Assembly (NCBI GenBank): GCA_010093995.1
Contig: ML992502.1
Span: 1,047,001-1,111,000 of the forward strand
From: Elsinoe ampelina
Taxonomy: Eukaryota
Direction of reading: 5' to 3'
DNA length: 64,000 nt
Under the pieces are notes generated by a model. It did not search any database. It worked only from the letters and a program-made list of their open reading frames with translations, and was not told the DNA's origin. The translations under genes and the position numbers were made by a program. Below are positions 1-53,704 of this stretch, one piece after another; the first letter of the stretch is position 1; each line of letters starts with the position of its first letter.

Positions 1-573
1 CAAGCACTCCATCTCGTCTTCCCGGATCACGTCCACGCCCCCGAGCCGCGACCGTATGCGGTCGTAGTACTTGAACGCCCCGCCGCCCGTGGCCATGACG
101 CAGAGTTTCTCCCGCTTGGAGGACGAGGACGAGGTGCGCCCGGCGCGGCGGCGTTGTTGCTCTTCCAGCCCGCGGAGGAACTCGATGCAAGCGTCGATTT
201 TGTCGGTTTCGAAGCGGAGGAAGTGGAGCCGGCCGCCTTTTCCTTTGGACTTGGACTTGCTCTTTCCGTTGGCCGGCTCTTCCGTTTCTGGCGCAAAGTA
301 GACGACTTTGGCCAGGCTGCCGCCTATGTCGGCTGCCACGTGGGAGACGAGGCCCGTGTGGTTGGGGAGCCGGATGTCGCGCTTGTCTTGCTCGAAGGCG
401 GGTTCTTCGCTCGAGGAGGTGGGGGAGGATGCGCCGGAGGAGGGAGGGGAGGAGGTGGTGATGTAGGCTCCCGAGACGTTGATTTTGATGCTGCCTGGTT
501 CGAGGATGGCCGTGGCCATTTCGCTGGCCGTGGAGGAGAGGCGGCGGCGTTTGGAGGGGCGGGGGGAGGGCAT
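1..573 (-). CDS. panK: Pantothenate kinase, type II (5' part; runs off window start)
   Basis: Manual translation from ATG at 573: MPSPRPSKRRR...DIRLPNHTGLVSHVAADIGGSLAKVVYF...GGRLHFLRFETDKIDACIEFL...VMATGGGAFKYY. The DIGGSLAK and ATGGGA motifs are typical of eukaryotic PanK/Cab1. Confidence 0.9.
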   Translation of the reverse strand, partial: MPSPRPSKRRRLSSTASEMATAILEPGSIKINVSGAYITTSSPPSSGASSPTSSSEEPAFEQDKRDIRLPNHTGLVSHVAADIGGSLAKVVYFAPETEEPANGKSKSKSKGKGGRLHFLRFETDKIDACIEFLRGLEEQQRRRAGRTSSSSSKREKLCVMATGGGAFKYYDRIRSRLGGVDVIREDEMECL

Positions 574-948
574 GGTTGTTGGGTTTGGTGGGGTAGGTAT
601 GGGGAGTTCAGATGGGCATTGAGGTTGGGGAGGTAGGCATTGGGTTTGGTGAGCGTAAATAGGAGAAGGAGGGAGGATCGTGGAAGGGTTTCAACAGGTG
701 CAGATGGCAGACGGAGTGGATTTGAAGTGGTCGCGTGGGCTGATGATAGCTTGAGCTGGTCTGCCCCATTGGCCCGAGATTTTGGTCGGGCCTCGGGAGT
801 GGGTTGATGTAATTTTAACAGGAGCCGGGATGTAGGGCCGGTCTGCCGCTCATGCCATATACCAGTGCATTGCTTACAAGTTATAAGCTTACGATCATCG
901 GTTGGATCAGAAATTCTAAGTATTATAATGGTATCATCTGTCTCTCAT

Positions 949-2505
949 CTAGAACCCCGTGTCATACCCTTGGCCGATCGTGCTCAAGCTCTTCTGGTCG
1001 GCACTGACGAGATTACCGACATGCTGACCCGGCGCTCCAGCCATGTACCAGGCATACTTCTCGACGAAAGTTGCTTGAGTATCGAGGTGGGCAAACACAT
1101 TTGTCACAAAAGCATTCACCTCCGCATCAGTCCCAGAGTTGAGGCCGAATTCAGTGATCCAGATGGGGTAATTTCCGCCGCCGACAGTGTCGTGCGTGTA
1201 GTACAGTTGGCTGTAAAAGCTGTCGAAATCGTTGGGTCCGCCGTACCAGTGGATAGGAATGAAGTCGATCTTGCAGTCCGAGCACGCTGCCAGGAACTTG
1301 ACCAGCCAGTCATTGCCAATGTTGAGACCTTGTCCATTGGTCACGGCGGGGGCACCAAGTCTGAACCCTTGCGCCTTGAGCGGAGTGATATACTGGCGGT
1401 AAGCTGTCACTGCATCAGCGACGCTCATACACGAAGAACCAGCGCCATCAACGCAGAGATCTGGTTCGTTGAATCCGAGAACTTCGGTCCATCCTTTTGC
1501 CTTGGCGGCAGCAACGTTCGTGGCCCACACATCGGTGAGGTCAGACGCTGCGCTCCACAACATAGGCACGAACTGCAGGTTGGGATGGAGGGGCGCTTGC
1601 TGGGCGCCGAGCTTGGGATCATGAGGCGCACTGAACCAGTTGTATGCCCAGCTGACTTTGGATGTGCCAGCCGAACATGTGGTTGAAAAGAAATTCGTGA
1701 CGGGCGTGTAGTTGTAGGCGAGGCCTCGTTTGCCACTACCAGCAGTTGGACGACAGCTGGAGCTTGTGGTCGTTGTGGTGCTTGAAGTAGTTGTTGTGGT
1801 CGTTGTGGTCGTCGTTGGTGGACTTGTGGTTGTCGTTGTGGTTGTCGTAGTTGTAGGGCGAGTCGTGGTCGTTGTGGTGCGCGAAGTAGTTGTTGTGGTC
1901 GTCGTAGTGGTCGTCGTTGGTGGACGTGTGGTTGTCGTTGTGGTTGTCGTAGTTGTAGGGCGGGTCGTGGTCGTACTGGTAGTCGTCGAAGAGCTGGTAG
2001 CAGTGGTGGTACGAGTGGTTGTTGGAGTCGTGGTCGTTGTCGTGGTGCTAGTTGACGAGGTGGTGGGGGGACGAGTAGTCGTGGTCGTAGTTGTCGTAGC
2101 TCTGGGTGTTGTCGTCGTGGTCGTGCTTCGAGTAGTTGTGGCTGCGGGTGTTGTTGATCTGGTCGTCGTGGTAGATACAATAGCGCATGACTTGTGGTAG
2201 AACTTCCACGGCGATGATGCGTTCGCATTAAAGTTGTTCTTGACCGCTGCAGCGTACAGTAGACACCCCTGACTCCCTACTGCATAGCTTATGCATTGCG
2301 ATTGGCCATTGCAGCGATTTGCACAATTCGCCTGCGCCTTGATATTCGGAAAAGAAGTAAATGCCGCTGGGTTACTCCTATCATAGCCAGCCTGGCCGCA
2401 TATGGTGGTGGAAGTCTGTCGTCTGCTCTGGCGGTGACCAATTGGTTCAGCAAGGGTCAAGCACGCCAGCAGTAGAAGACTGGACAGGGGGCAAGGCAAA
2501 TGCAT
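949..2505 (-). CDS. Secreted GH128 beta-1,3-glucanase-like protein with N-terminal Cys-rich (PAN/apple-like) module and Thr-rich linker
   Basis: ATG at 2505 followed by a signal peptide (MHLPCPLSSLLLLACLTLA). Motifs KRGLAYN, WAYNW, FVPMLW, LGFNEPD, FIPIHWY and IWITEFG include both putative catalytic Glu. Intronless. Confidence 0.85.
   Translation of the reverse strand: MHLPCPLSSLLLLACLTLAEPIGHRQSRRQTSTTICGQAGYDRSNPAAFTSFPNIKAQANCANRCNGQSQCISYAVGSQGCLLYAAAVKNNFNANASSPWKFYHKSCAIVSTTTTRSTTPAATTTRSTTTTTTPRATTTTTTTTRPPTTSSTSTTTTTTTPTTTRTTTATSSSTTTSTTTTRPTTTTTTTTTTRPPTTTTTTTTTTTSRTTTTTTRPTTTTTTTTTTSPPTTTTTTTTTTSSTTTTTSSSCRPTAGSGKRGLAYNYTPVTNFFSTTCSAGTSKVSWAYNWFSAPHDPKLGAQQAPLHPNLQFVPMLWSAASDLTDVWATNVAAAKAKGWTEVLGFNEPDLCVDGAGSSCMSVADAVTAYRQYITPLKAQGFRLGAPAVTNGQGLNIGNDWLVKFLAACSDCKIDFIPIHWYGGPNDFDSFYSQLYYTHDTVGGGNYPIWITEFGLNSGTDAEVNAFVTNVFAHLDTQATFVEKYAWYMAGAPGQHVGNLVSADQKSLSTIGQGYDTGF
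1760..2175 (-). repeat. Thr-rich coding low-complexity tract with an internal ~100-bp tandem duplication
   Basis: (TTTTTTTTRPP)n-like repeats; the units starting near 1784 and 1883 are near-identical. Confidence 0.85.
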
Positions 2506-3133
2506 GATGCTAGAAACGAGCGACTGACGGGATAGCAAAGTTGCCAAAGGAAATGTCTAAACTGTGTAGAAAGGGTCAAAGACGACGACAAGAAGGAGAA
2601 ACATGCTCCTTTTGAAGTGGGATCATGCTTGGGGATTTCTCAGCACCGAAGCACTTACGGTAGACTTCACCAATAGTCGGTAGAGGCGTCTGCAGATTGG
2701 TGAGAAGATCCGGTGCATTGCGCGTGCAAAAGGAGGCGAAAAACAGCCATAAGCCACCGGCGGTGGGTGAAGTGAAACATCGATGCACTCTGGAAGGTGT
2801 CGTGCCTGCCAAGTCAGTACGTTTTGCGCTCACCATACCTCGCTTCCCCCTACCAGGGCGCTGGAAGACCCGACAGTGAGATAAGGGTCTCGCGGCTTCG
2901 TGAACCAGTTGACTTGAGGCTGGCTGAAGGTAGCGCTAAGGGGGTAAGTCGACCAGAGTTTACGCTGAAGAACGAAGAATGGGAACCCCAAGAGGTGCAT
3001 CCAGAACCCCTTTTGGACGCGCACAGTCCTCCCACGGCGCGTGGCAGCACGGATTTGAGCGCTGCCAATTCCCACCTTGCCACTCTAGTCGACCTTTGCT
3101 GCGCCGACGACTCCCCTTCGACGGTTGATAATT

Positions 3134-11403: not shown

Positions 11404-14400
11404 TCACACACCTGCAGGCTGGGGAGCAGCAGGCTGTGGAGCAGGTCCTCGGTAGTTGTATGGTGGTGCCTGTCCACCATAGTAAGGATCATAGGTCAGT
11501 AATGCGAATCCAGGATCTTTAGGCGCAAGATCGCTTGGCCAGCAGCGATTGATATTCAAGCCCGCATTAGCCGGTGCCTGGGGATAGCTGGACCAGTAGA
11601 ACTGTGGTCTCTTGGACATGGTCACAGCTACAAAGGTCTGTGTCGTCAAATGTTGCTTGACATCGTCCTTCTGTTGAGCTGTGACTCGCTTATTGGCTGG
11701 TACAGCGTTGACCATCTTCGTGAAGTCGTCATTAGACATGGCGTTGGTATCGAACATTGGGTGGAAGCATTTACCGCGAAGGTAGCTACCCGCACCCTCA
11801 TTCATTCCTCCCTCGATGTATCGGACCAGTTGACCTTTGGAGTTCTTTCCGCTTTGCTCGAGGGCTTCGAATCCTTGATAGAGCAACATTGCGGGTGGCC
11901 ACTCGTCTCTCTGACACCTCAGCGGATGTGGTTTGGGTGTCCAGCCTTGCCCGTTATGCTGCCAGCTCCACGTGGACGTCGCCCCAGCTGGCACTCGGTC
12001 GGCCATGCTGGTGGTGGCTGCGTCGACCGGGCAGTCTAGTGTCTTCCAGTGTGGGTTCACACTAGCCGCCGAGCTGTAGTGCCAGCAAGCCTGGGACCAT
12101 TTCGGCCGGCACGAGTGACCAATTGCTGTAGGTTCGGCATTGGCCGGCCAGCCCAATGATGTAATGATCATGTCTGTAGCGTGTAGTGTCTCGTCTTTGC
12201 AGCTTTGTCTTCGTAGAGTGTGTCCACCACCCATGCGTCGGGTCGACTGACCCGGTCTGACGGTGCATTTTTTCTTGGGTTTCTTCTTATCAGTCCCACC
12301 ATTATTGTTGCCGCTGCCGTTACCACTGCTGTTATCCTTCTCACTGCGCTTCTTGCTACGATCTGTTGGATTGCCACGATCGCCCTTTTTACCACTACCC
12401 TTTTTGATGTTCTGAGGAGGTTTGAAACGAGTAACTCCATCTGCAACACTGCTAAGGATGTCGAAAACTTGGCGCATCTCGGCAGGCACAAGAGACGTGT
12501 CGCCGCATGGGCTCAGCCACCACTCGAATGCGCCTTGGGGATCGTTGTCCCCATCGTAAGCGTAGGCTGCGAGTTGAGCTGCCGTGGTGGCCATCTCTGT
12601 GGCAATGAGTCAGCTCGCGTGTCTCCGATATTTGCACCATCATACCTAAGCCAGCATCGAGTACCTTCCCGGGACCGGGGATAAATTCCAGACCAATGTC
12701 GAGCACCAGTTTGAGAGCTGACATGATGGCGTAACATCCGATCTAGCAGGACTTGTTAGTATACTTCGGCAATGCTCTCACGAACGACATACCTGAGCGA
12801 TGATAGGAATAGCCTCCAGAAATGCAGAAGCCAGCTCGTTGATTAACCAGCTGTCACATATGCACTTGCCGTCAGCCACCCTACCACGAATGGTAGGCTC
12901 GCTGACCCATGGGATTTGATTGCCCGGAGCGTTGGGCCACCATCCAAGACAGCCGTAATTCGTGATTAGATCTTGGGATTTGGCCTCCTCAACGATGTCT
13001 TTGCAAAAGTTGTAGCATTGCAGAGCACCATTCTGTCTGTTCCTCCTGTCTTCGTAGATGATACAACCTTCGTTATTCTTTCGCCTAGCTTCGTATGTGT
13101 CAAAGTAATTGGGCTCCTCGCCGACTTGTAAGGGCAGATCATCCCACTGAGGGACCTCCGGACAGACGTCTGTAGGGCAGTCGTAGTATTTGCAAGCGAA
13201 TTTGCAAAGGCGCTCAATCTCAGGCACATTTCCATCCTCTGCTTGGACATCTACGCCGCTCCGCTCCGGTGGAAGTTCGAGAACTGGTCCAGTCTCGATG
13301 CAAAAGCAAAGGCTTTCTGGACATACCCCGTAAGAGCAGGAAAAGGCGCAAAGATCACCAGTATTCAATGTAGAATCTTCGCCTTGTATGCAACCCTCTG
13401 CTCCTGTGTCGGGCCGCTTAGACGGTCGCGATGAGTCGTCAGGTCCAAATGCTTGTAGATCCACGGCCCAGTCAATGCTCCCACCAAAGTTGAACCCTTT
13501 GAAATATTCACGTCGGGTATCTTTGGTGGTCGGTGTCATGTAACTGACATAGTCGCCTAAACATAGTCATCAGCGAGATTGCCAAGTGTGGTAGCATTCA
13601 GGATTTCCACCCACCTTTGTAGAGCATGATGTCTGAATTGGACGCTGCATCGTGGAAAGTGCTCACGCCTGATTGAGTGCGTGCAAGCTCGGTAATCTCG
13701 GCATATCCGAGATACCCTCCTGTCTTTGTGCACCTTCCTGGCCGCGCATCGGAAATCTCTCGAGATCCAGTGAAGTCGCACATAGGCCCCCAGCAGCCGT
13801 CACGCGCCATGTGGAACGATCTGCCATAACTGGCTTCACCTACAAAAACCTGGTAGTTTGGCACACCAGCCTTTACAACTGCAATGAGCTTAGTATTACG
13901 CATACATTGCGTTGACAGCGGAGGCAACTCACTCATTCCCAAGGCATTCCTTGTTTCTGTAAGATTCACTACACTTTATTAGATTTGAAGAAGTATAAAC
14001 AGGTGTTGGCATACCATGACTGCGAATACATTTACCAGAGGGGCAAGAGTCGAATGCATTAGGGTTGCCGTAATCCCATTGGCCATGTAGGTCGTATGTC
14101 ATATAGACAATGTAATCAACAACGGTACCGATCTGAGCGATGGGAAAGTTTTTGAGATACCAGTATGAAGCGGGTGCTGCAATGGAGGTCGATTTGCCAG
14201 GGGCCATTTGCCGCTTGAGTTCCTGGAGAAACCTGAAGTAGTAAATTCCGTCGAATCTATCGCCAATGGGGACACCATTGGCAAAGATGTCAGTTGCCTA
14301 TCGAAGTGTTAGATGTCTGCACGAGGTTGAAAGGGGCGCTGCTTACGCCGGGATATTCCCAGTCGATATCGATTCCATCGATGCCTTCGTTAGCAGCAAA

Positions 14401-16173
14401 TTGTGCTAGATTCTTCGCAAAAACCAGGTAGTTGTCGATAATGGCCGATCGAATGATCTTGTAGGTAGCTGGCTCGGTCGAATACGCCCAACCTCCGAAG
14501 GATACTATACGCTTCATTTCAGGAAGTCGCTTGAAATCGTTCCATTGATTGTGTGGGTCCTTTATGATCGGCTTCCAGGTATTCGGATCAATGTCTGCAA
14601 AGCCCCAGTGCATGTGTGTATAAGTCCCATCTGTATTGGCATTCTTGGCAGAGAGGTAGAGGCATTCTCGATCGAAGTTCCATGATTCGTAATAACCGAT
14701 ACGTCCAAACGATGGTGGTGGAGGTCCATTGACTTTGAGCTCGACGCCACAATTAGAGACGCAAGTGCTCGCGGCACCGGGTAGCTTCGAGCCAGGTCCG
14801 CCTCCTTCAGGAGCGTTTATATTACAATGAGCAGGGAACACCCCGCAGAAGCCCCAATTACTACAGCAGGCTTTGATGGGGCATTCGTTGAGGTTTGCAA
14901 GGGAGAAAGATCCTCCCGCAGGTCTTGGCGTTCCCGGTACTGTTGGCCCACACTCAGTCCCCTGTTGTGCCGGTGGTAAGGGGACGTAGCCGGATGAGAT
15001 GCACATGCTGTTGCCAACCAGGATGTCCTTACACTCGGTCCATGCCCAAGTACGTCCTTTGTTCCACTGTTCGATACTAGCAACAGTGATTCCGTAAAGT
15101 CGAGCGATGGCGTCACAGGTGTCACCATTCTTGATAATATGCGTTGCACAGACCCCATCAGACCCAGGCACCGGCACAGCTCGCTTCGTAAGAGGACCGA
15201 CTGTTCCGAAAACTGAATCGCCTCCCACTGCAGAGGTTGTTGAATTAGAATGCGTCGTGGTGTTTGAGGACAAGATTGGGAAGAGTTGGACATCAGGAAT
15301 GTCATCTCCGCGACGTAGATCGCCCTGGATGGCGCATGCTCCTTGATGCCAAGTGACCGCAGCTCTCTGGACAGCGGCAAGATCGTCTCCAGTGGTATCA
15401 AGCACGATGCCAAAATGGTTACCGAATGACAGTCCTGATGCACAGTACTCCGCAACAGTGTGATTGGTGACTATGCCCTCGGTCTGGATGCGGTTCCTGA
15501 ATGCGCCAAGTGCTGAGTCCACAGAACTCTTCCCGACGTAGTCGCCAATCGCAAGACCAGCGATAACACCTTTGTTGTAGGCAAAGACGAATCTTTCGTC
15601 ACAGTTGTCTGGCTCCTCGAAAAAGGCCTGTATCCCATCCAAAAGTGGCATGATGGCCTCAACATTGGTAGCGACGTCACCAAATTTGGCATACCTCAGT
15701 GTCGTCTCTTGTGATGTACCCCTGCTCGAACAGGCAGAAGGCAACTGATAGTCTTGAGGGAACAGATCCGCAGCCTTCTTCGGATTGTCGACTGGCACGA
15801 GCATCGTCGGGATTCCGCCAGTAGCGTTCTGCAGGCCTCTAGCAGCATCATCGCTCTGGCCTGTGAGAGAACAAGCTCGAATCAATGCGTTGTTCCCAGC
15901 ATCGCTGATTGGTACTGTTACGGAGAATTGCAACAGCAAGGGTTTTTCGCAGCGGTGTAGCCTATCTACGGACGTGTACGGGATCCAACTGTGTATGTTG
16001 GCGAGATCTGAACATGGCAGAGGACAGGCATGTTGCTCCGGGTTGTAGACATCGGGGTCTGCGAAGGGAACAGTTCCGTTGTCGACTGGCAGTACCACAC
16101 GATTACCATCGAGATCGATAGCGGAATGCACGAGACCTGGTAGTAAGAAGGATGGTATATGAGAGAGCTTCAT
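11404..16173 (-). CDS. Killer-toxin-like subgroup C chitinase (~1487 aa): SP, N-domain, KR site, LysM, CBM18, GH18, Cys-rich region, hydrophobic helices, basic patch, NucA/NucB-like nuclease domain
   Basis: Exons 16173-14347, 14297-14015, 13968-13933, 13878-13615, 13556-12793, 12742-12646, 12596-11404. All introns are GT-AG; total 4464 nt, in frame. LysM GDTCDAIARLYGIT, hevein CCSNWGFCG, GH18 SFGGW and DGIDIDWEYP, YMTYDLHGQW, C-terminal RDEWPPAM...VRYI...NEGAGS. Confidence 0.92.
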
Positions 16174-18930
16174 GGTGCAAAGAATGTACTTTGGACAAGA
16201 AAGGGGGACAGGAGTGACGCGAGCAAGTGACTTTGCCTGGACGACAACTCGTATAAATTATCAAGGGAACTGCACTTTACCACTCCATCTGTACCCCATG
16301 AAGAAATGCAATCATCCAGGAGGTCCCACCAGCACCTGCTCGATTGAACCCTCCTGGGCGGGCAATGGTTCAAACTCGTGTCCACCACTGTTCACAGCTT
16401 CCGACCAGGTACAGCAGAGATTTTCGAAACGAGGGTTCCGCACTGAACTTCGGCCCCTCATGTCGGTGGAGATCTCACCGGAAGACAGTGTATTGATTAA
16501 GGGTGCCGACCTGACTTTTTTCAGGCAGGACCGGTGAAGAAGAGAAGCGATGTAACCGAGCTGAATGTTGACTTGTGTGTGGGGAGGGAAAGAGATTTAT
16601 TACTGCCTGATCCACCAAGGTTAGGTGGATTCTCACTATATAAATACTTAACCTGATAAACTAAGAGATAACTAAATTGACAGAACTCCTAAGTTTTAAC
16701 AGAATAAGACAATAACTGTCTAAATTAATCATGAATTGGTATAACTGTTGATAAGTGCTTAGTTTAGCCTTAGGTGCACTAAATTAGGGTCCTTCTTAGC
16801 ACTATAGCTCTTGCCGAGGTTAACACACCCCTTTACTAAATAGCTATAAGTCTATTATAGCTAGTTAGTGGACTACTAACTCGAGGGATAGCTATTGTAA
16901 GAAGGCCTTATACCTCCCTAGAGGAAGTGACTTAGTAAGTCTATCTACTAGTGTATCTACTAAGAGAGTCTAGTCTATAGAGATAGAGCCTCCTAGAGTG
17001 ATCTCTTGCCTTAGCTAGTAATAGTGGATATCTATATAGCGTAGATGTATGTTAAGCTTCTTAATTAGATTAGTAATAAGGCTAATAGTTTACTAGTTGT
17101 TATACTAAATACTAACATTCCTTAGTGGATAGATAGTAGCTATTAGCCTCCTCTACTATATAGCTTGCTTAGTAGTCTCTACAAGAGTAAGTAGTTTAGC
17201 TTCTATACTAGAAGTAGTAATAGTTAGCTACTTTATAGCCTTCTAATCTATAGAGCCTTAGAATAGCTTAAATAGATACCCCTAAAGGCTCTTTCTTAAA
17301 GGGTAACTTCTAAAGCTAGCATCTAATAAGGCTTAGAAGATTAGTAGTAGTATTAAGCTATTAAAGGTAAGAGCTAGATCTCTAGTCTTATAGAGATACT
17401 AGATTACTCTATTTACTATCCTTTAATAAGTTAGTAAAGGGTTTATTAGATACTCTAACAACCTAGAAGTAGCAAAGGTAACATTAGGCCTAGTAATAAC
17501 AGCTGCAAAATTAATAGATTCTATCTTCTGCTAATATAGATAGATCTCCTATAGTAATACTTAGCCTTTAGAGGGCTAGAGTATTTCAACTAGAAGTAGT
17601 AATAAGACTAGCCTTATTAGTTCTATAATAAACTTGCTATACATCTACTGGATATACTAAGCTTAACTAAGCTATAGCTTCTTAGTTGGCCTATCCCTTA
17701 TAATTTAGATAGCTAGGAACTAGCTTAGATTCCCTAGAACCTTTATCTTATACTTAGCATATAGAGCTATAATAATAGCATTAGCCTTGCCCTTGTGCTT
17801 CTTAAGGTACATAATAGTGATATTATCTACAAAGAAGAAGATTATTACCTTAGGGGTTAGCTAGAGGCATAGAGCCTTAGGGGCCTAAGTAAATCTAAGA
17901 TTCTTTAGTATAGTAGTAAATTCTATATACTAGAGAGCTAGTACTTGTTTAAGGCTATAGAGTGCCTTCTTTAGTAGGAGGATTGTATTAGATAATGCTA
18001 TACTAGGATAGTCCTTTATAAGCACCTCTAGTATAAGCTTAAACCTAGGTAGGATAGTGTAGTAGGTTGTCTTATTAATAGGACTATTAACATAAGCATT
18101 AACAATATCTATCTAGATAGCCTCTATATCCTTGTAAGCAAGGAGGGCTATAAGTATTCTAAAAATCTTAGTAGCTAATATAGCTATATAAGTCTCTAAA
18201 TCTATAGATTAAAGATTACCTCTTATATAAAGCCTTACCTTGTGTTTAATAACTTCTCCTTTGTTATTAGTCTTATATATAAAGACCTAGGTTAGTAGCA
18301 CTAGCTTCTCTATAGCTTAAGATGTAAGTATAATAGTCTAAGTGTCTTTTAAATAGAGAGTAAGTAATTCTACCTTTATTGCTTATTAGAATTACTCCCT
18401 ATAAGGATAAGCTTATAGCTCCCTAATATTAGCTAGTAGTAGAGGTAGATTATCCCTTAGTTCTAGCTTTAGCTAGATTAGCTTTATTAATAGATAAGCA
18501 TTAAAAGCTTAATGATATCTAGGAGCCTCCTAAGGCTATATAAGACTAGTAATATAGGCCTACCTTCTTAGTTTTCTAGTCCTTCTTATAGTAAGGATAT
18601 ACTTAGGCAATAGGTTAGCTAACCTTATAGTAATTCTTCTTCTAGGCTGTTTAGGCTCCTTAGTTACCCCTTTAGCTAGGGCTTCTATCTTACTTCTTAT
18701 AGTTTTAGCTTTAGATAGAGGTAAAGGCTATATAGCTATTAAGGGTAGAGAGGCTAGAGCATTATAGAACTACTCTAGTGATGTAGCCTCCTAGATCTAA
18801 GCTAGGTTTAGCTCTAGGGTCTATAACTGTAATAGTAGACTATAATTATCTAGTAGAGGTAATAGAGCCTATTAAGCCTATAACTGTAATAATAAACTAT
18901 AATTATTTAGTTCCTTAGTTAGAATCTACT

Positions 18931-19013
18931 AAACTAGATTCTAAGCTGAATTCTAAACTAGATTCTAAACTAGATTCTAAACTAGATTCTAAACTGGATT
19001 CTAAACTAGATTC
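18931..19013. repeat. 12-bp tandem repeat (AAACTAGATTCT) x~7 in the Copia IN-RT linker
   Basis: Seen directly; the second Copia copy has ~4 units near 50744-50790. Confidence 0.85.
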
Positions 19014-20279
19014 TGTAGTATAGATAGGCCTTTAGTTACCCCTTTAGTTTAAGGTATATTCTCCTTAACTTCCTATAGTAGTCTTAGTAGATTAAGTAGT
19101 CTAATAGACTAAGGCTAAGGCTACTCCTCTAGCTTGTAGAACTAAGTCTTATTAAATCTAACATCCCTTGTTCTAATAACCTTCTTTAAGGCTAGTATAA
19201 AGATCCTAAATATGTTAGTTAAGTTATATCTAACTAGATAAATAATGTATGCTCTTAGTATAAGCTTATTACTACTTATAACATAATAATCTAGTGTATA
19301 GGCCTTATAACTAATTAGCCTAAGATAGGAGATTAATAGAGGACATCTATAAACTAGCTTAAAGAGAGTCTTCTAGTTAAGCTTCTTAAGTAGAGTTCTA
19401 TTTATTAGATAGGCTACTAATCTATATAGTTTAGAGTATAGTTCCCTTAGAAGATTAGTAAAGATAGCTACTACCCTTACTCTCCTTAATAGTATAGACC
19501 CTATCCTTTTACTATAACTATTCTATGCTAGAGTATATAGAGTAGATAGCTCTCTTTAAATACCTTTACTATCTAGGAAGATAGTAAATCTAAGGCTAAA
19601 AGCCCCTTTATTATTACTCCTAACAAATCTAACCTTAAAGCTAAGATTGCTTTTAATATAAGTAATTATCTTAATATAGATTTTATTAATCTTATATCTA
19701 TAAGCATAACTGCTTACAAGGTAATAGTTAGTAGCTCTATAGGCAAAATAGCTTATATACCTTGCCTTATTATAGCTAGTAAACCTATTAATAATAATGT
19801 TAAAGGTGATCCTTTTAAAGAGCTTAGTTATAATAATCTTAGTGTTAGAGCTCCTTAAGATAAGCTTCTAAGTATTTAATAGCTTATAAGTCTAATATAG
19901 TAACCTAAGGTAGATTAGCTAAACTAAGTTAGGCTTAGTTAAAGTTAGTTTACTACTAACTATAGTAGTTAGGAGGTAATTAATAGACTCTATACTTAGA
20001 TAGCCTATAACTTTATACTAGAATTAATTAGTCCTTGTTATAACTAAGGTAAATACTAATAGATAAGGATCTCTAGTGCCTCCTATAGCTATAGTAATAG
20101 TATAAGGAGCTTTAGAGTTATTCTCTACTATATATTAATTGTGCTTTAGAGTTACTAAGAAGAGTACTTTCCCTTTATAATTAATCTCTATAGTTTAAGT
20201 GTTCTAGTGGACTTTACCCTTTAGGAATCTCCTAAGGCTAACTAGATTAGTTATTATTAATAGTACATAAGCTACCTAT

Positions 20280-20384
20280 NNNNNNNNNNNNNNNNNNNNN
20301 NNNNNNNNNNNNNNNNNNNNNNNNNNNNNNNNNNNNNNNNNNNNNNNNNNNNNNNNNNNNNNNNNNNNNNNNNNNNNNNNNNNN
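20280..20384. other. Assembly gap (105 N) inside the Copia gag-protease region
   Basis: Run of N. Confidence 1.
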
Positions 20385-21741
20385 ATATATCTAGGCTCCC
20401 TAGTAGAACTAGGCTTCTCTTATAAGGAGTCCTTAGTAGCTATAGGGAATGCTATTACTCCCTTACTAGCCTTTGTGCTACTATATAGCTTATAAAGTTT
20501 GTAAAACTGTCTAAACTTAGTAATTAACTTAAGTATTAATAGCAGGGTTAGTAAATCTAGATTAATAAGATATTTATTAGCAAATACTAGTTTAGTCCTT
20601 AAGATAGAGAGTAAGAAGTCTCTCTATAGCCTTAAGCCTTAAGCTTCTAGTAGGTTGTAATTCCTAGCCTTATCTATAACCTCTTCCTATTACTAAAGCT
20701 AATAGTCTATGTTCTGTGATAATAGACTAGAGAGTTGTCTCCTCTAGAGAGCTTTAACTTCTAACTAGATTATAGTATTAGATAGTACAAATCTGTTCTT
20801 TAATGCTCTAAGGATAGCCTATAGATAGAAATCTCCCTCTAGTTAGATAACTATAAGAACTTATAGTGCAATTAATAACTAAATAAGGCTAGCTAGATCT
20901 GCTAAGACCTTATGCTGTTTGTTATGCTAAGCTTGCTCCTCCTTATATATCTAGAAGAGTGCTAAGAAGTTAAAATCTAATATATCTAGCCTCTAAGGCT
21001 TAGGGAGCTCTTCTAGCTTAACTATCTCCTAGGGATTAATAATGTACTAGATCTTAGTGTTTAAAGCTCTAGTCTTAATAATATATAGCTAGCTAGCCTA
21101 TTTAGCTGATGTAGCAAGAATAATAGGTGTTCTAGCTATTAGTGTGTTAGTATCTATAGTTGTTTATCTCTTTGTTAACACCTAAATCCTATAGTAGTAG
21201 ATAAGGTAGTACTTAACAGATTCTAGTGCTTAAAAAGCGAGATGATAGAGAATGAACTAATAAATCAAGTAGAGAAGCTACTAAATAATATACTTATACA
21301 GGGGTAGTTATACCGGGCTTATAACTATTGACTTGTATATAGGGAGGGAAAGAGATTTATTACTACCTAATCCACTAAGGTTAGGTGGATTCTCACTATA
21401 TAAATACTTAACCTAATAAACTAAGAGATAACTAAATTAACAGAACTTCTAAGTTTTAACAGAATAAGACAATAACTGTCTAAATTGATCATGAATTGGT
21501 GTAACCGTTGATAAGTGCTCAGTTCAGCCTTGGGTGCACTGAATCAGGGTCCTTCTTGGCACTACAGCTCTTGCCGAGGTTGACACTGAAGATGGTGGAG
21601 CTAAGGGCGGCGTGGCAAATTCTTGGCTATATAATAAGCGGGCATCAACCGAGGCTAATATTTCACGCCTTCACACTTCTTCCTTCAGCGGGACTCTTCA
21701 TTCTGCCAACCTCCTACACGGCACGAACTCAAACATTCGAG

Positions 21742-22518: not shown

Positions 22519-22785
22519 ATTGCACTATCCAGCTCTTGACATGAAGATCCCCTGCTCTCGAGGCCCTGTGGGGCCAAAAGTATCTAGCAACCGGTGAAGA
22601 GCTGAACAATGGATCATCGCTAGCTCCTTGGCAATCCCCTGTCCTTCTGCCATTTCCATACCCTCTCTTGGATTTATGGCAAGCTCGTACGGGCTGGTTT
22701 TCGAAGCGGACTTCTCTCTTCCTACGCTCACCTCTGCTCTATTGTAGTTTCATTCTACCAACGAGATCTGACTTTCGCAGCCATC

Positions 22786-23397
22786 ATGAAGGGTCGTGCC
22801 GTCTTCGCAATCGCCCTCAGCACGACTATGGCTCAACTTCATGCCACGCTGCTTCCGACAGAGGGGCCATTGATCACCAGAGATCCGTGGCAATGTGTCC
22901 TGGATAACATGACTTCCTACTTCCGACCTCCTCAACCAACAGGCAACCTGGCTACTGCGCTGGTGTCCTATGGAGGAGTACTTCTCGATGAGATCTGTCC
23001 ACCAGAACAGCCTATCTGTCCCTTTCCTGCCCAATCCAGATGGTGCGCCTTCACGGACGTCGCGCCTCGGACACTTCTCGCTGATTGGAGCTCCTACGGC
23101 AGCATGGCGAACGAGTGGATCGCCTCTCGAAGTTCGACGATGATCGAACTTGCGGTACAATGTCCGAACTACTGGTACAAAGCTATGAATCAGGTCCCAT
23201 TGGGCAAGAACCACCTGAACAGTACTATCACCTTTGCAGGCTGCTATGCAGAGGCTCAAACTACCAGCGTGCCGGACTCGCAGAGGCAGGCAGCACCTGC
23301 AACACCGGCATCGGGAATACAATCGGAGGAGCCTAGGGAAACAGGAAGTCTAGCTGTTCGTAGCTATCAAACCGACGGAGTTGTCGCTGGTCTCTGA
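22786..23397 (+). CDS. Secreted Cys-containing protein, GPI-anchor-like if the stop is read through (to 23430)
   Basis: Signal peptide, 6 Cys (DPWQC, CPFP..RWC, QCPNYW, FAGCY) and a Ser/Thr/Pro tail. The stop TGA-CTAG is followed in frame by LAGFMSMVYG*. Confidence 0.75.
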   Translation: MKGRAVFAIALSTTMAQLHATLLPTEGPLITRDPWQCVLDNMTSYFRPPQPTGNLATALVSYGGVLLDEICPPEQPICPFPAQSRWCAFTDVAPRTLLADWSSYGSMANEWIASRSSTMIELAVQCPNYWYKAMNQVPLGKNHLNSTITFAGCYAEAQTTSVPDSQRQAAPATPASGIQSEEPRETGSLAVRSYQTDGVVAGL

Positions 23398-24245
23398 CTA
23401 GCCGGCTTTATGTCCATGGTTTATGGGTAGAGGATATTGCGGAGAAAAACTACATGGCGGGCATGGCACAGATTGTTCACATTCATTATCTTCTGCTTAT
23501 CATCACAACGAAATACCTCTATACGATCGTGCAGCTGCCTAGTTTCTGCGCGCTCTTAGAATCTTGCTCTTTGCGATATTTCTACATCCTACCCGGTCGT
23601 CTCTACAGACTCGGAGCCAGTAAACGCACGGCCAAGCTTACACCCCTGTAGCACGGTCTTTGTGTTTCTGATCTGCGGTGGATCACCCAAGCCAGGGTTT
23701 GACCTGCTCACCGGTGAAGGTGTTGGGTCACACCGGTCCATGCCTTGGCGTGCCAACACTTCACCGAGATGCTACAGTCACTTCAGCTGAGCGGATTCAG
23801 CCTCACTAGCGGCACGAGTCTCTCTTAAGGTTGTATGTCTCACCGGATGCCTGGTTGCTAGGAACCAGGCGTCGAGGCACGTTATCGGACAATCTCATTT
23901 CCACGAAAGCTGGCTAACGATCTTGGCTTCTATACCATCAATATTGCTGCAACTCGACTGACCGGGAGCCCCACACCATTGACGGCCGGAGTGCCCCTTC
24001 AGGTGAGTCATTTTGAATTGATGCAGAGGTTATTGTGGATAACACAAACTATTGTTTAGCCAAGCTGGTCCTTCCTGCTTGGGTCAAGCATAGGGGTAAG
24101 GTACGGCCGACGTCGACACGACATGTCTTTTCAGCGACTATATCTCAAATGCGTTGCCCATGCGAGCGCCCTGTTGCATCCGGTTTCCGTATCGGCCAGA
24201 GTTTCTTTCTTTCATCTTTGTACTTCCATTAGATCATAACCTATC

Positions 24246-25634
24246 ATGGGGAACCTTATTCGATTGTTCGGCGTGGTAGCACTACTCAGTACCGTCGTTT
24301 CAGGGGCCCTCATGAGGCGAGACTGCGCCTTCACTATCTCTGCACAATCAGGTGATACGTGTGGGTCCCTTGCTACATCGTTTGGTATCTCTGTCAATGA
24401 ATTCATCAGCTACAACACTGGAGTCGATTGCACGCTTCCTTTGACAGCCAACAAGGAATACTGCATCCTGTGGTCAGGCGAAGCTCCTCCGATGCCTTCT
24501 TCGTCCTCGACAGCGACCACAGCGTCGAGCCAGTCATCCTCGCCCACAGCAGCGCCCACTGGACCAGCTCCGCCGTCACCTACACAAGCTGGTCTTGATT
24601 CTCAATGTATGATGTTCAATTGGTGGCATAGCGGAAATTCTGACTGGTGCCACAGGCCAAAGATTCCACCTCGCTACAGACGGGGATACTTGCCAAGGCA
24701 TCATTGACAAATATCGCACGTTCAGCTTGCAGCAATTGTAAGTTCCGAATTGTTGAATGCACCACAAATATTGATCCATTCGACAGCTACGCGTGGAATC
24801 CTGCCGTTGGCACTTCCTGCTCTGGTCTTTGGTTGGGCTATTACTACTGCATCGGAACGGCCAGTACCCCTACCTCCCCACCGTCAACGACTACAGTAGC
24901 GCCCACACCTACTCCATCGAACGGCTTTCCCTCAGTCAGTCCTTCCTGGCAAGACCTTCTACACAGAGTACTGATTCGTTTGTTAGCCCGTCCAACCCAA
25001 TATCATCAGCACCTGCAAGCGATTCTACCAGGTTCAGTCCGGCGACTTCTGCCAGAAGATCGTCGATCAATACCGGACCTTCACACTCTCTGACTTTTAC
25101 AATTGGAACCCCTCCGTGGGTAACACCTGCGCCTCACTCCAAGCTGGCTACTTCGTCTGCGTTGGCGTCGACGGCACGCCTACCAGCCCAAGTCCTACTA
25201 GCAACCCAATCCCTTCCCCGACCCAGACCGGCATCATCAAGACCTGCACCAAGTACGACCGCACCAACCCCGGCGCTTTCTGCGAAGCCTTCTCCAATCG
25301 AATCGGCATTTCTCTTCCACAGCTGTACGCCTGGAACTCTATCCTCGGCACTCGCGGGGAGAATTGCGCCAGAAATTTCCTACCAGAGACATATTACTGT
25401 ACCGGAGTGTCGGGCCCGCTGCCCGCGCCTGGACCGACTCAGGGGGGTATCGTGGATATTTGCACCGGCTATGTAATGGCTAATCCAGGCGGATCATGCC
25501 CGGTTTTCGCAAACAGAGTAGGCATAAGTCTGCAGCAGCTGTATGCGTGGAATCCGGTGTTGGGCCGGAATGGGGAGAATTGTCAGACGTCGTTCTGGGC
25601 AAATACCTGGTACTGTACCTCTGTGGCCGGGTAA
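24246..25634 (+). CDS. Secreted LysM effector-like protein with five fungal-type LysM domains (412 aa)
   Basis: Exons 24246-24606, 24656-24737, 24787-24934, 24987-25634 (1239 nt, in frame). Five C..GDxC..WNP..C..YC-type modules joined by P/T/S linkers; signal peptide present. Confidence 0.9.
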
Positions 25635-25894: not shown

Positions 25895-27043
25895 TTACAC
25901 TAACGAAGCGTACACCAATGCCATCGTCGCCGAGATATGATAAGTAAGACGGTAATCGATCTGAGTCGATGCCTTGAAGGGACCACTCCAGTTCAAGCCC
26001 AACATATTGTTCTTCGTATTGCGAGCATTGTTCCAAATACTATCCGCATTGTTCTTCAACAACTGCGGAATGCCTCCACCACCCACACTCGGCCTAGCCT
26101 TGTAGACCTCGTAGAAGCCACGCATCATGATACCCTTGAACATGCCCGTGTCGCCATTGCAGCTAAAGTCAGCATCGCAGTACTCCTGCGCAATACCGTT
26201 GACGATCATGCCGTATTGACCCGAGGCGGTCTTCTCGGCGATGGACTGTGCGATGTCGAGCCATTCTGCGTTGCCGGTGGCGTCAGCCATGGCCACCATG
26301 GCTGCCATCGCGGCACCTTCTTGGTAGGTGAGGAAGGCGTAGTTGTTGCTGCAGGTGTCTTGGCCATTGCGCTTCTGGAGACCGTCGCCTTGGATCAGGC
26401 CGTCGATGTACATGTCGGCCTTGAGTTCTTTCCAGGCGGCGCGGGCCTTGTTGAGGTAGTTGGCTTTCTGCTTGGGGGTGCGCTTGGCGAGGAGGGCTGC
26501 GGCCTCGATGTAGAGGGTTTGGGTGATGACGCTGCTACCGCGCGGGGTGCCGGGGTAGGCGTTGTTGAAGAGACCGCAGGCGTCCTTGTCGATGTCGGCG
26601 GCGATACGGGCGAACGTTCGTCGGGCGCTGACGAGGTATTGGTTGTTCTTGGTGACGTCGAAGACCTTGATCATGGCGACGGTCCACCAGAGACGGTCGT
26701 CGAAGTAGCTGGTGTAGGTGAAAGCCTTGTCGCTGTCGACTGCTTGGTCGCGCCAGGTGACGTTGAAGACACCTTGCTCGCCATCTGTGATCTGTCTCAA
26801 GAATTGGGAGTTGTCGCCCTCGCGTAGATCAGCGAGTAGAGTTACAGCTTGAGCGCAGTTCCACCATCCGATCGTCCATGCGGCTGGTGAGGGGGTTCTG
26901 TAGTACATCGGTTGCTGCATCTTCTTGACGGCAGTGTGTGCATTTTGACGGTACTGGTTGGCCCGGCGCTCCAAGGTAGGAGTGGCAGAAGTGCATTGTG
27001 AGAAGGCAAGACTGGCAAGGCCAGCCAATGCTGTGAAATACAT
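25895..27043 (-). CDS. Secreted GH76 alpha-1,6-mannanase/transglycosidase-like protein
   Basis: Signal peptide and KR-like ERR site; WWNCAQ, catalytic YFDD.LWW, TYQEG, FKGIMMR and GLNWSGP motifs. No GPI tail. Confidence 0.88.
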   Translation of the reverse strand: MYFTALAGLASLAFSQCTSATPTLERRANQYRQNAHTAVKKMQQPMYYRTPSPAAWTIGWWNCAQAVTLLADLREGDNSQFLRQITDGEQGVFNVTWRDQAVDSDKAFTYTSYFDDRLWWTVAMIKVFDVTKNNQYLVSARRTFARIAADIDKDACGLFNNAYPGTPRGSSVITQTLYIEAAALLAKRTPKQKANYLNKARAAWKELKADMYIDGLIQGDGLQKRNGQDTCSNNYAFLTYQEGAAMAAMVAMADATGNAEWLDIAQSIAEKTASGQYGMIVNGIAQEYCDADFSCNGDTGMFKGIMMRGFYEVYKARPSVGGGGIPQLLKNNADSIWNNARNTKNNMLGLNWSGPFKASTQIDYRLTYHISATMALVYASLV

Positions 27044-27778
27044 GATGGATGAGATATAGCCTGGAAATAATGTGTTGTGGGGGGCGTGAAAGGATATTGT
27101 TTACCGGATGTCCTTGACATTATATATAATCTCCTTCAAATCTTAGCCTGCTTCCAAGCATCAACGGTAGCTGAGGTGGAAATACGGTGACGCCGCATTC
27201 TTCCGCCCAGAAGACAGCACAACGGGGATCGCATGGTGATCAAACCTGGTCTAACGGATATGACATCGCTGATAGGGTGCTCTACTTCGCTGTTCTGGAG
27301 CGTAAAGACAAGACCGACTGTGAACTATTTGCGCCCAGCTGGGCTGGAGTTTGACCTACCTGCCAGACGTTGGGATGTTATATAACGGCTCGCCACAGCG
27401 GCCAGAAGTAGATGAGAGGAGGAAAAGATTGGCAGCAAACACGTGCGGAACATCATGCTGCCACTCTAGATGATGACATTGTGGTCTCCGGTGCAGACAC
27501 ATCGCAAACGCCTGCCGAGGAGATGACCGCATTGTGGATATATCAGTCTTCGATGTAGTCGGATGACCAGACCTCGATATCAAACAGCCAAGACGCGTCT
27601 GATACCGGGCTGTCAATAGGCCGCGGATCGCCTCCACCACGAAGTAGCGCAGTCAATAGTAGATGCGGGAGCATTAGACCGTGTTCGAGTGCAGTGGCGA
27701 GCCTTGTAACCAGGGTAAAAGACATTGGAGATTGAATTTGAGAACGGTTGATGTGTGAAACAGGACGCGTAATTTGCA

Positions 27779-49533: not shown

Positions 49534-49863
49534 GGCCGGACTCGTCCTGCTCGATGTGCTATCAAAATAATCCCAAGGACGCTTGTATTTACATTAAAGA
49601 AGGAGCAAGGCAGAGATGGTTGGCTCACTTGATATGTACCTACCACGAACGGACATCACGCTTCACGACTTGCACTTGCACTACGAGAAGTCCACGTATG
49701 ATTGGAGCACATGGTGACACACAATGACCCAAAGGAATCCCGATGCAGCACAAGGGATCATAGAACAAGAACGACTGGCTGGTGAGGCGCTGGTGGGAAA
49801 ATTGTGTTGCACAGACGTTGATGAGGGAGGTGATGGAAAGAGCGAAGATGGGATTGACAACTA

Positions 49864-52800: not shown

Positions 52801-53704
52801 ACCTCTTCCTATTACTAAAGCTAATAGTCTATATTCTATAATAATAGACTAGAGAGTTATCTCCTCTAGAGAGCTTTAACCTTAAGCTAGATTATAGCAT
52901 TAGATAGTGCAAATCTGTTCTTTAATGCTCTAAGGATAGCCTATAGATAGGGATCTCCCTCTAGTTAGATAACTATAAGAACTTATAGTGCAATTAATAA
53001 CTAAATAAGGCTAGCTAGATCTGCTAAGGCCTTATGCTGTTTGTTATGCTAAGCTTACTCCTCCTTGTATATCTAGAAGAGTGCTAAGAAGTTAGAATCT
53101 AATATATCTAGCCTCTAAGGCTTAGGGAGCCCTTTAGGCTTAATAGTCTATTAAGGATTAATAAGATTCTATATCTTAGTGTTTGATGCTCTTATCTTGA
53201 TAATATATAGCTAGCTAGCCTATTTAGCTAATATAGCAAGAATAATAGGTGTTCTAGCTATTAGTGTGTTAGTATCTATAGTTGTTTATCTCTTTGTTAA
53301 CACCTGAATCCTGTGGTAGTAGATAAGGCAGTACTTGACAGATTCTAGTGCTTAAAAAGCAAGATGATAGAGAATTGACCAATAAATAGAGTAGAAAGAC
53401 AACTGAATACTCTACTTGTGTAGGGGTAGTTATACTAGGCTTATAACTATTAACTTGTGTAGGGAGAGAAAGAGATTAATTACTGCCTGATCCACCAAAA
53501 TTAGGTAGATTGTAACTATATATATACTTAACCTAATAAACTAAGACATAGCTAAATTAGAGAACTCCTAAATAGTAATAGATTAAGATAATAACTATCT
53601 AAATTGATCATGAACTAGTAAAGTTGTTAAAGAGTGCTTAGTTCAACCTTAGGTGAACTGAATCAGGGTCCTTCTTGGCACCACAGCTCTTGCCGAGGTT
53701 GACA
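49864..53704 (-). mobile_element. RIPed Copia element, internally deleted (lacks RT and most of RNase H)
   Basis: 257-bp LTRs (49864-50120, 53448-53704) and TSD AACTA (49859-63, 53705-09). The interior is collinear with the 16.6-21.6 kb element except for a ~1.48-kb deletion at ~50222. Relics of the gag Zn knuckle and protease WILDSGAT remain. Confidence 0.95.

Follow-up and report, generated by a model that had tools for sequence, protein, structure and literature searches.

The window analyzed here is a 64,000-nucleotide stretch of the genome of Elsinoe ampelina, which we take to be a dothideomycete (contig ML992502.1 of assembly GCA_010093995.1, positions 1,047,001 to 1,111,000; all coordinates below are those of the window). 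It contains a chitinase gene whose product carries, at its C-terminal end, a putative nuclease domain of the NucB type. The gene lies on the minus strand at 16173..11404, in a region (11404-16257) where five long open frames are united by introns into a single coding sequence. In the splice model seven exons (16173-14347, 14297-14015, 13968-13933, 13878-13615, 13556-12793, 12742-12646 and 12596-11404) make up a coding sequence of 4464 nt, which encodes 1487 residues, and the six introns are all of the GT..AG type and 46-58 nt long. The spliced product matches the database protein P0154 at every residue; this protein is named 'hypothetical protein BDZ85DRAFT_316064 [Elsinoe ampelina]' at NCBI and 'chitinase' in UniRef. 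The transcript appears to be spliced accordingly. Contigs of the public run X1, which is only presumed to be RNA and whose contigs do carry splice joints, skip precisely the introns 12743-12792 and 13879-13932. One of these contigs has a loose end at 12598, where nine more letters are those of exon 6, and because this end runs into exon 6, the nuclease exon is joined to the exons of the chitinase. Coverage of the gene by X1 is partial, with 14864-16151, for example, uncovered, and a second run, X2, contributed no contigs.

Ahead of the terminal domain, several modules follow one another on the same polypeptide (all coordinates on the minus strand). The protein begins with a probable signal peptide, MKLSHIPSFLLPGLVHSA (residues 1-18, 16120..16173), which was recognized by reading the sequence without a predictor. 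A LysM module (CBM50; residues 345-372, 15058..15141; Pfam PF01476, E-value = 1.5e-6 with the full protein) and a CBM18 chitin-binding module (Chitin_bind_1; residues 428-451, 14821..14892; PF00187, E-value = 8.1e-7) precede a GH18 catalytic domain that spans four introns (residues 492-836, 13459..14700; PF00704, E-value = 6.2e-36). The match to the latter covers profile positions 3-315 of 317 and the catalytic motif DxxDxDxE is intact (DGIDIDWE, residues 599-606, 14379..14356), and judged from its sequence the GH18 domain looks active. Since LysM and chitin-binding modules stand N-terminal to GH18, the carrier of the terminal domain is assigned, by domain order, to the architecture of the subgroup C-II, or 'killer-toxin-like', chitinases; C-II chitinases have LysM and C-I chitinases do not, according to the accessible text of a preprint on these genes (bioRxiv 10.1101/2024.10.25.620242).

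Behind the GH18 domain, a pattern scan revealed two Cys-rich repeats of the form CxFxCxYxxCPxxxC, without family assignment (residues 873-935, 13162..13350), and the same pair is present in the relative P0163. They are followed by a conserved, portable segment that is shared with relatives and crosses two introns (residues ~960-1160, 12388..13089); we call it the 'delivery' module. Its motifs are EWWLSPCG (12525..12502) and GSGKKGD (12399..12379), the latter within KKGSGKKGDxGNP. The module includes a hydrophobic segment, IPIIAQIGCYAIMSALKLV, which spans intron 5 (residues 1053-1071, 12704..12810). Its 19-residue Kyte-Doolittle mean of 1.72 is the maximum across all 1487 residues, and the segment is kept in relatives. 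Between the module and the terminal domain lies a low-complexity Gly/Asn/Ser linker of 40 residues (1161-1200, 12268..12387 in translation), which agrees with the flexible Gly/Asn linker that an earlier reading of the letters (the original prediction) had placed upstream of the domain.

The last 287 residues (1201-1487, 11407..12267) form the C-terminal domain, as delimited by homologue search and model; domain residue 1 corresponds to Cys1201 of the protein. The domain is basic, with an isoelectric point (pI) of 8.98, whereas the remainder of the polypeptide, apart from the linker (10.35), is made up of acidic parts (pI 4.3-5.8). Among 1.84 billion representative proteins, 244 relatives of the domain were found at E-value <= 1e-3, 118 at <= 1e-10 and 51 at <= 1e-30, and they were arranged in two alignments, A1 (57 rows) and A2 (124 rows), both clean over the core. 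The conserved columns of A2 comprise H63 (96 of 105), D121 (108/113), E122 (109/113), P125 (115/116), R149 (121/122) and N156 (119/122), and further conservation is seen in H63-Y64-x-S66, W100, H104 (100/107), W109, D121-E122-x-P124-P125 and Q146. The window's protein has exactly eight cysteines in the domain (C1, C23, C53, C61, C79, C118, C167 and C242), and seven of these positions are conserved in at least 88%. Toward the end there is a conserved block consisting of G236, L237, N240, C242, W243, P244, D251-P252-G253, L256, L257, D260 and Y263. It makes up a family-specific motif, G-L-x-x-N-x-C-W-P...D-P-G-F-A-L-L-x-x-D-x-x-Y (11479..11565), that is absent from NucB; counts for its positions are 112/118 for N240, 111/116 for C242, 108/113 for D251, 104/111 for G253 and 106/110 for D260. 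In the structural model the region of this motif (domain residues 228-275) is predicted with high confidence to be mostly coil. A chance motif was considered and ruled out by the conservation across relatives. Many matches of 300-420 residues resemble free-standing secreted nucleases at first sight, but the 13 short ones inspected had no signal peptide. As most of them begin within the module, the linker or the domain, the short matches are most likely fragments derived from last-exon open reading frames (ORFs).

From ACWHYSSAA (His codon 12081..12079), CQRDEWPPAML (11916..11884) and LVRYIEGGMNEGAGS (11830..11786), all of which are present in the minus-strand translation at the positions given, the original prediction had recognized a DNase domain of the NucA/NucB type at the very end of the chitinase, and had suggested comparing an AlphaFold model with NucB. 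That assignment is supported here, as NucB is the top match in the Foldseek, VIA-align and profile-PDB searches. AlphaFold2 with the 124 rows of A2 gave a model with a predicted local distance difference test (pLDDT) score of 95.5 and a predicted template modeling (pTM) score of 0.88, whereas the single sequence gave an unusable one (pLDDT 31.6). With this model Foldseek ranked NucB (5omt) first among 350,542 PDB chains (E-value = 0.04, probability 0.95, template modeling (TM) score normalized to the target 0.54, 23% identity), followed by a mutant of NucB, and all later rows had TM <= 0.15 under both normalizations; no match among these chains passed an E-value of 1e-3. VIA-align, a method independent of Foldseek, also placed NucB first among 48,161 representative chains (6ejs_A, Z = 7.1, root-mean-square deviation 3.1 A; runner-up Z = 3.9), aligning 106 of the 109 NucB residues (model 45..228 against chain 34..142). 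The predicted NucB-like core accordingly occupies domain residues 45-228 (11584..12135). No other His-Me nuclease family appeared above Z = 2 among the VIA-align rows listed, which is not evidence against the superfamily.

Sequence profiles lead to the same protein. A1 searched against 177,635 distinct PDB sequences had two matches, both NucB (E-value = 0.4), in which R-D-E-Y-P...Q-L-V-R-Y...N-G-G-A-G-S of the profile is aligned with D-R-D-E-W-P...S-V-R-Y...N-R-G-A-G-S. Some relatives have a short, NucB-like loop between the strands, and a 10-row profile of these (A3) reached NucB at an E-value of 0.0039, with NucB as the top three of five matches. The nearest three ESM-Atlas clusters are all PF14040 (DNase_NucA_NucB), with scores of 0.87, 0.86 and 0.85; these lie below 0.9 and are leads only. 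When prokaryote genomes were scanned with the alignment of the short-loop relatives, none of 27 pattern matches was confirmed by tblastn, and no bacterial sequence bridging the two groups was obtained.

Other results count against this assignment. The Z score of 7.1 is below 8 and thus in the range where VIA-align cautions about merely common arrangements. The window's domain was undetected in single-sequence searches with Pfam, NCBIfam and phmmer against PDB; the Pfam check advised in the original prediction accordingly came out negative, the window's protein giving no match to PF14040 at all (gathering threshold 23.8 bits), and none of 49 closer relatives matched PF14040 at E-value <= 0.01. 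As to the first point, a genuine relationship is favored, despite the Z score, by the 3-unit gap to the runner-up and by the almost complete alignment of NucB. As to Pfam, four of 25 divergent relatives show sub-threshold matches to PF14040 (P0117, E-value = 9e-4, 20.2 bits against the cutoff of 23.8; P0135, 0.038; P0121, 0.1; P0122, 0.13), while the remaining 21 show none, and because the divergent relatives match the window's domain at E-values of about 1e-10, the link to PF14040 is a transitive one. Based on four partly independent lines of evidence, the domain very probably has a NucB-type nuclease fold in which the catalytic Asp, Glu and Asn are retained.

The residues themselves can be compared with those of the bacterial enzyme. 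In NucB, Glu94 stands in for the usual His general base, which is missing, the metal is held by Asp93 and Asn117, and Asp93 is positioned by His53; replacement of the equivalents of His53, Asp93, Glu94 and Asn117 by alanine abolishes activity, and the conserved motifs are named DRDE and DNRG (accessible text of PMC5758888). In the profile-PDB alignments, Asp93/Glu94 correspond to D121/E122 of the fungal domain (residues 1321/1322 of the protein, 11907..11902, in Q-R-D-E-W), and Asn117 to N156 (residue 1356, 11802..11800, in M-N-E-G-A-G-S). DSSP analysis of the model puts Asp121-Glu122 on strand 119-123, Arg149 on strand 147-151 and Asn156 close to the N-terminus of helix 153-163, and with the hidden Markov model alignment to NucB this outlines a predicted beta-beta-alpha-metal motif at 11779..11913. 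His63 (residue 1263, in CWHYSS; codon at 12079..12081), the histidine conserved in 96 of 105 rows, is the probable counterpart of NucB His53, as estimated from sequence offsets only, and H104 is another conserved His of the domain. The original prediction had named His, Glu and Asn as the conserved active-site residues. This holds for Glu and Asn, to which Asp is to be added, and fails for the role of His, since the base of NucB is Glu94 and its His53 supports Asp93. The conserved set would thus be Asp/Glu/Asn plus a supporting His, not the canonical His of His-Me enzymes.

These residues also bear on the idea that the tail has no catalytic role and serves in binding or structure, for example as the alpha-1,3-glucan-binding module 'CBM24', having kept the shape of NucB but not the activity of a nuclease. 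In their source records several relatives go by 'carbohydrate-binding module family 24 protein' or 'GH18 and CBM24', the CBM24 of Metarhizium ChiMaC3 is described as being 'at the C-terminal region' (accessible text of PMC4169460; PMC12954445), and the Pfam nuclease model remains below threshold, all of which would suit such a domain. The source name 'CBM24' of P0159, P0161, P0167, P0172, P0174, P0175, P0180 and P0181 likewise speaks against a toxin with a nuclease cargo. However, Asp, Glu and Asn are kept in 95-98% of rows, and since a mere scaffold does not need such conservation, the domain seems to be more than that; moreover, the domain is basic, and the CBM24 label of the relatives could stem from the Cys-rich repeats after GH18 (residues 873-935) rather than from the nuclease domain. 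We regard a non-catalytic tail as very improbable.

Compared with NucB (PF14040; 5OMT, 6EJS), the fungal domain shows the same beta-beta-alpha-metal core over 106 of 109 residues in the model, the R-D-E-W-P and V-R-Y...N-x-G-A-G-S motifs align, the Asp-Glu pair and Asn are kept, and Glu, not His, stands at the base position; both proteins would be secreted, the fungal one judging from its probable signal peptide. The differences lie in what has been added. The fungal domain has 287 residues against 110 in NucB, and the model predicts an additional N-terminal beta-sheet (residues 1-52), strands at 195-227 and an extension at the C-terminus, which is conserved. Between the catalytic strands the loop has about 23 residues in the window's subgroup and 11 in NucB, the eight cysteines follow a pattern other than the single bond Cys66-Cys100 of NucB, and the fungal domain is fused to a carrier of 1200 residues, whereas NucB stands alone. 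In short, the terminal domain is most aptly described as a remote and elaborated branch of the NucB group in fungi that lies outside PF14040 as currently modeled.

The arrangement of carrier, module and nuclease is reused in other fungi. A search for long proteins with the 85 residues preceding the linker yielded 42, among which GH18 occurs in 38 and DE[YWF]PP in the tail of 38, and the tails past WWLSPCG are about 320-420 residues long. The four without DE[YWF]PP are P0156 and P0170, which are truncated, P0157, which lacks the first half of the domain, and P0190. Named relatives include Trichoderma, Fusarium, Metarhizium, Epichloe, Colletotrichum, Alternaria and Trichophyton. Two relatives have carriers of other kinds. 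P0034, which is GH55-like (Pect-lyase_RHGA_epim) and named as a beta-1,3-glucosidase, has the same module, linker and nuclease, and P0190, a GH71 protein of 835 residues named as an alpha-1,3-glucanase, has the same module with GSGKKGD and then an unrelated tail of 130 residues (~700-835). GH18, GH55 and GH71 carriers all target fungal wall polymers, and one C-terminal cassette is therefore common to three kinds of enzyme. The P0190 tail only weakly resembles ADP-ribosyl-cyclase (Pfam Rib_hydrolayse, E-value = 0.036, below the cutoff; Atlas leads of 0.86-0.89), and may represent another type of cargo carried by this module.

A search with the module itself (residues 960-1160) found 20 proteins, with GH18 or GH55 carriers only, and did not reach C-II chitinases without the nuclease. 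In other relatives of the terminal domain (P0015, P0016, P0061 and P0089), what lies upstream is a different region that includes a related motif, 'NWIGDACG', and the linker is of the Thr/Ser/Pro type; P0055, P0086, P0091, P0103, P0105 and P0128 also belong to this class, whose linkers have no basic run. Several of its members have K-R or R-R shortly past the first Cys of the domain, resembling a dibasic cleavage site. In P0151, DUF7029/DUF7223 lie upstream of the domain.

The linker of the window's protein contains the two basic motifs named in the original prediction, SKKR (12357..12346) and DKKKPKKK (12291..12268), the latter right before the first Cys of the domain (12267). Their conservation differs. 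In 63 rows with a GSGKKGD-type motif, where the window's protein is counted twice (P0001 and P0154), at least three K/R are found among the last eight linker residues in 45, and a dibasic pair is found there in 47; KR or RR occurs anywhere in the linker in 18 rows, and the linkers of several relatives terminate in KKRK, KRRR or KKKR. Because it is conserved across relatives, the lysine patch is a family feature and not an accident. Thus the DKKKPKKK cluster of the earlier basic patch stood up, whereas SKKR did not, most relatives having S-x-P-R/K in its place.

For this patch the original prediction proposed a nuclear localization signal (NLS), by which DKKKPKKK, with SKKR upstream, would import a released nuclease fragment into the nucleus of a target cell. 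KKKPKKK (residues 1194-1200) fits the K-K/R-x-K/R cluster, which we take to be the classical monopartite NLS pattern; the basic cluster is conserved exactly at the boundary of linker and domain in the 45 rows; and a killing DNase would need access to the nucleus. On the other hand, the cluster is missing from 18 of the 63 rows, relatives with the other upstream module (such as P0016 and P0089) have Thr/Ser/Pro linkers with K-R just past the first Cys, SKKR is unconserved, and the same residues could serve as a dibasic protease site or a DNA-binding arm. The position of the patch at the domain boundary fits an NLS, a dibasic processing site and a DNA-binding arm equally well, and nuclear import seems unlikely to be its role.

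As to what such a protein does, a related system has been described by Heneghan, Salzberg & Wolfe (bioRxiv 10.1101/2024.10.25.620242). According to its accessible text, C-II chitinase genes of Pezizomycotina adjoin separate genes for zymocin-like gamma-toxins, and these toxins are linked with the chitinase via a cysteine close to the enzyme's C-terminal end; LysM-only genes accompany the chitinase genes in these clusters; some C-II genes, among them the 'orphans' TAC3, Chi18-9, chiC2-1 and chiC2-4, have no neighboring toxin gene; and no clusters were found in Dothideomycetes. The words DNase, NucB, fused and fusion are absent from the main text of that preprint. Our preferred reading, to which we would assign a probability of roughly one half, is that the window's protein may be a single-chain, zymocin-like, chitinase-borne antifungal toxin that has its nuclease cargo in cis. 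This reading builds on analogy and on architecture: the C-II type of carrier, which bears zymocin-like toxins in filamentous fungi, the reuse of module and nuclease behind other wall hydrolases, and the LysM-only ORFs in the vicinity. The chitinase part would dock on another fungus and open its chitin wall, passage of the C-terminal part to or across the membrane may be aided by the hydrophobic module, and the linker would be the likely point of processing. Asp1321, Glu1322 and Asn1356 would then hold a divalent metal and activate water, and the nuclease would cut nucleic acid non-specifically; the target would presumably be DNA and not RNA, in the nucleus and not the cytosol. As for the entry into target cells that this presupposes, we see even odds.

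Several points weigh against a toxin. The Bacillus NucB is an extracellular DNase and not a toxin (accessible text of PMC5758888). The eight cysteines of the domain fit an extracellular enzyme no less well than one acting in the reducing cytosol or nucleus. No gamma-toxin-, immunity- or inhibitor-like gene was recognized in the window among the 32 of 187 stop-to-stop ORFs of at least 90 residues that were scanned with Pfam, and an intracellular toxin might need one for immunity. To our knowledge there is no Pfam model for gamma-toxins, nor for immunity proteins, and for this reason, and because 32 of 187 ORFs were scanned, this absence is weak evidence.

The same points suit an extracellular nuclease that is tethered to chitin and never enters a target cell, but digests DNA released from lysed hyphae (of prey or its own) or contained in the matrix. 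It would serve feeding, phosphate scavenging or the clearing of sticky DNA. NucB, which is secreted and degrades extracellular DNA (accessible text of PMC5758888), is consistent with such a role, as is a PF14040 protein that is abundant in an extract of mushroom sclerotia (accessible text of PMC7413093); the latter protein is also discussed there as a possible cytotoxic DNase. This alternative leaves unexplained, however, the conserved hydrophobic module and the basic-ended linker between carrier and nuclease, as well as the presence of the same module before the unrelated tail of P0190, and the class of carrier is the one used by zymocin-like toxins. We consider a purely extracellular nuclease, the chief competitor of the toxin reading, rather unlikely.

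The toxin reading can be compared with three known systems. Zymocin of K. lactis and the zymocin-like clusters share with the present gene the secreted carrier of LysM, chitin-binding and GH18 modules (secretion being probable here), a LysM-only gene nearby, a nuclease that is presumed to be lethal, and an intron-containing nuclear gene. In contrast to this, the toxin of zymocin is a separate, small tRNA anticodon nuclease that is disulfide-joined and often comes with an immunity gene, whereas here an unrelated, NucB-like fold is on the same polypeptide as the chitinase; moreover, zymocin-like clusters are not reported in Dothideomycetes, the class of the window's organism, in the accessible text of the preprint. 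Bacterial polymorphic toxins and nuclease colicins (Zhang et al. 2012, PMC3482391, accessible text) have the same succession of targeting, translocation and C-terminal nuclease as proposed here, with one delivery part on different carriers and a different tail as in P0190. They differ from the present case, in which the gene is eukaryotic and contains introns, wall hydrolases serve as carriers, an immunity gene was not seen next to it and the swapping of cargo rests on one example, P0190, with a weak family match. In the same source, 'Tox-NucA' is listed with conserved GH, N, N and E, unlike the motifs of NucB, and fungal killer toxins are likened to polymorphic toxins. Finally, the Hce2-chitinase fusions of Pezizomycotina resemble the arrangement proposed here in that a chitinase of subgroup C carries a cytotoxic 'effector' domain, but the Hce2 effector has another fold and is not a nuclease; the accessible text of that source (PMC13556262) mentions chitinase fusions with Hce2 effector domains only.

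A chitinase-nuclease fusion was not found described in searches of full-text literature. The classification of His-Me nucleases in PMC5714182 has no mention of NucB, and PMC13348850 has no chitinase-nuclease fusion; a search for 'PF14040' gave identifiers of malaria genes only, and an incidental DNase_NucA_NucB conserved-domain label is attached to one GH55 gene in PMC12590764.

The window as a whole consists of GC-rich gene blocks interspersed with AT-rich blocks. Two LysM-only ORFs on the plus strand (24240-24704 and 24987-25631, E-values 4e-7 and 1.6e-8) lie about 8 kb from the chitinase gene, and other ORFs encode DUF7735 (22624-23394) and GH76 (25898-27100). Directly downstream of the chitinase gene and on the same strand is P0152 (8690-9838, minus strand), a protein of 382 residues that starts much like a signal peptide, with MDLKALLASSMLLAYVSAS, and belongs to no Pfam family. 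An AT-rich repeat (GC 30-39%) exists in two direct copies, at 16565-21586 and 49863-53704, which are 91-95% identical where 18395-21585 is compared with 50209-53704. The first copy is flanked by 259-nt direct repeats (16568-16826 and 21328-21586, 92% identity), and this repeat, which borders directly on the chitinase gene's 5' flank, looks like a degraded element of the long terminal repeat type. The start of the window (1-2556) holds a Fumble (pantothenate-kinase-like) fragment and a Glyco_hydro_cc ORF (952-2556), both on the minus strand, and these, like most of the rest, are ordinary genes of housekeeping or wall-related function, such as those for an aldehyde dehydrogenase, a thiolase, a P450, a GMC oxidoreductase and a sugar transporter.

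It is possible, although we put it at somewhat less than even odds, that the present protein represents a wider group. Many of the 'subgroup C' chitinases of Pezizomycotina may be colicin-like, single-chain antifungal toxins, which would combine a wall-hydrolase carrier, a membrane-active module, a swappable killing domain and a patch that leads to the nucleus of the victim. The killing domain would usually be a NucB-like DNase and occasionally another one, such as the ADP-ribosyl-cyclase-like tail. If true, such proteins would be a eukaryotic counterpart of the bacterial polymorphic toxins, and the C-II genes without an adjacent gamma-toxin gene would be explained by a toxin carried in cis. 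Subgroup-C chitinases (140-170 kDa) have been catalogued for about fifteen years in mycoparasites, in plant and insect pathogens and in dermatophytes, and their last ~350 residues are unannotated or bear only automatic carbohydrate-active enzyme (CAZyme) names. A built-in nuclease would extend the idea of C-II carriers beyond the separately encoded, zymocin-like RNase toxins, and the nuclease cargo offers a testable hypothesis for the role of these chitinases in fungus-fungus antagonism and biocontrol.

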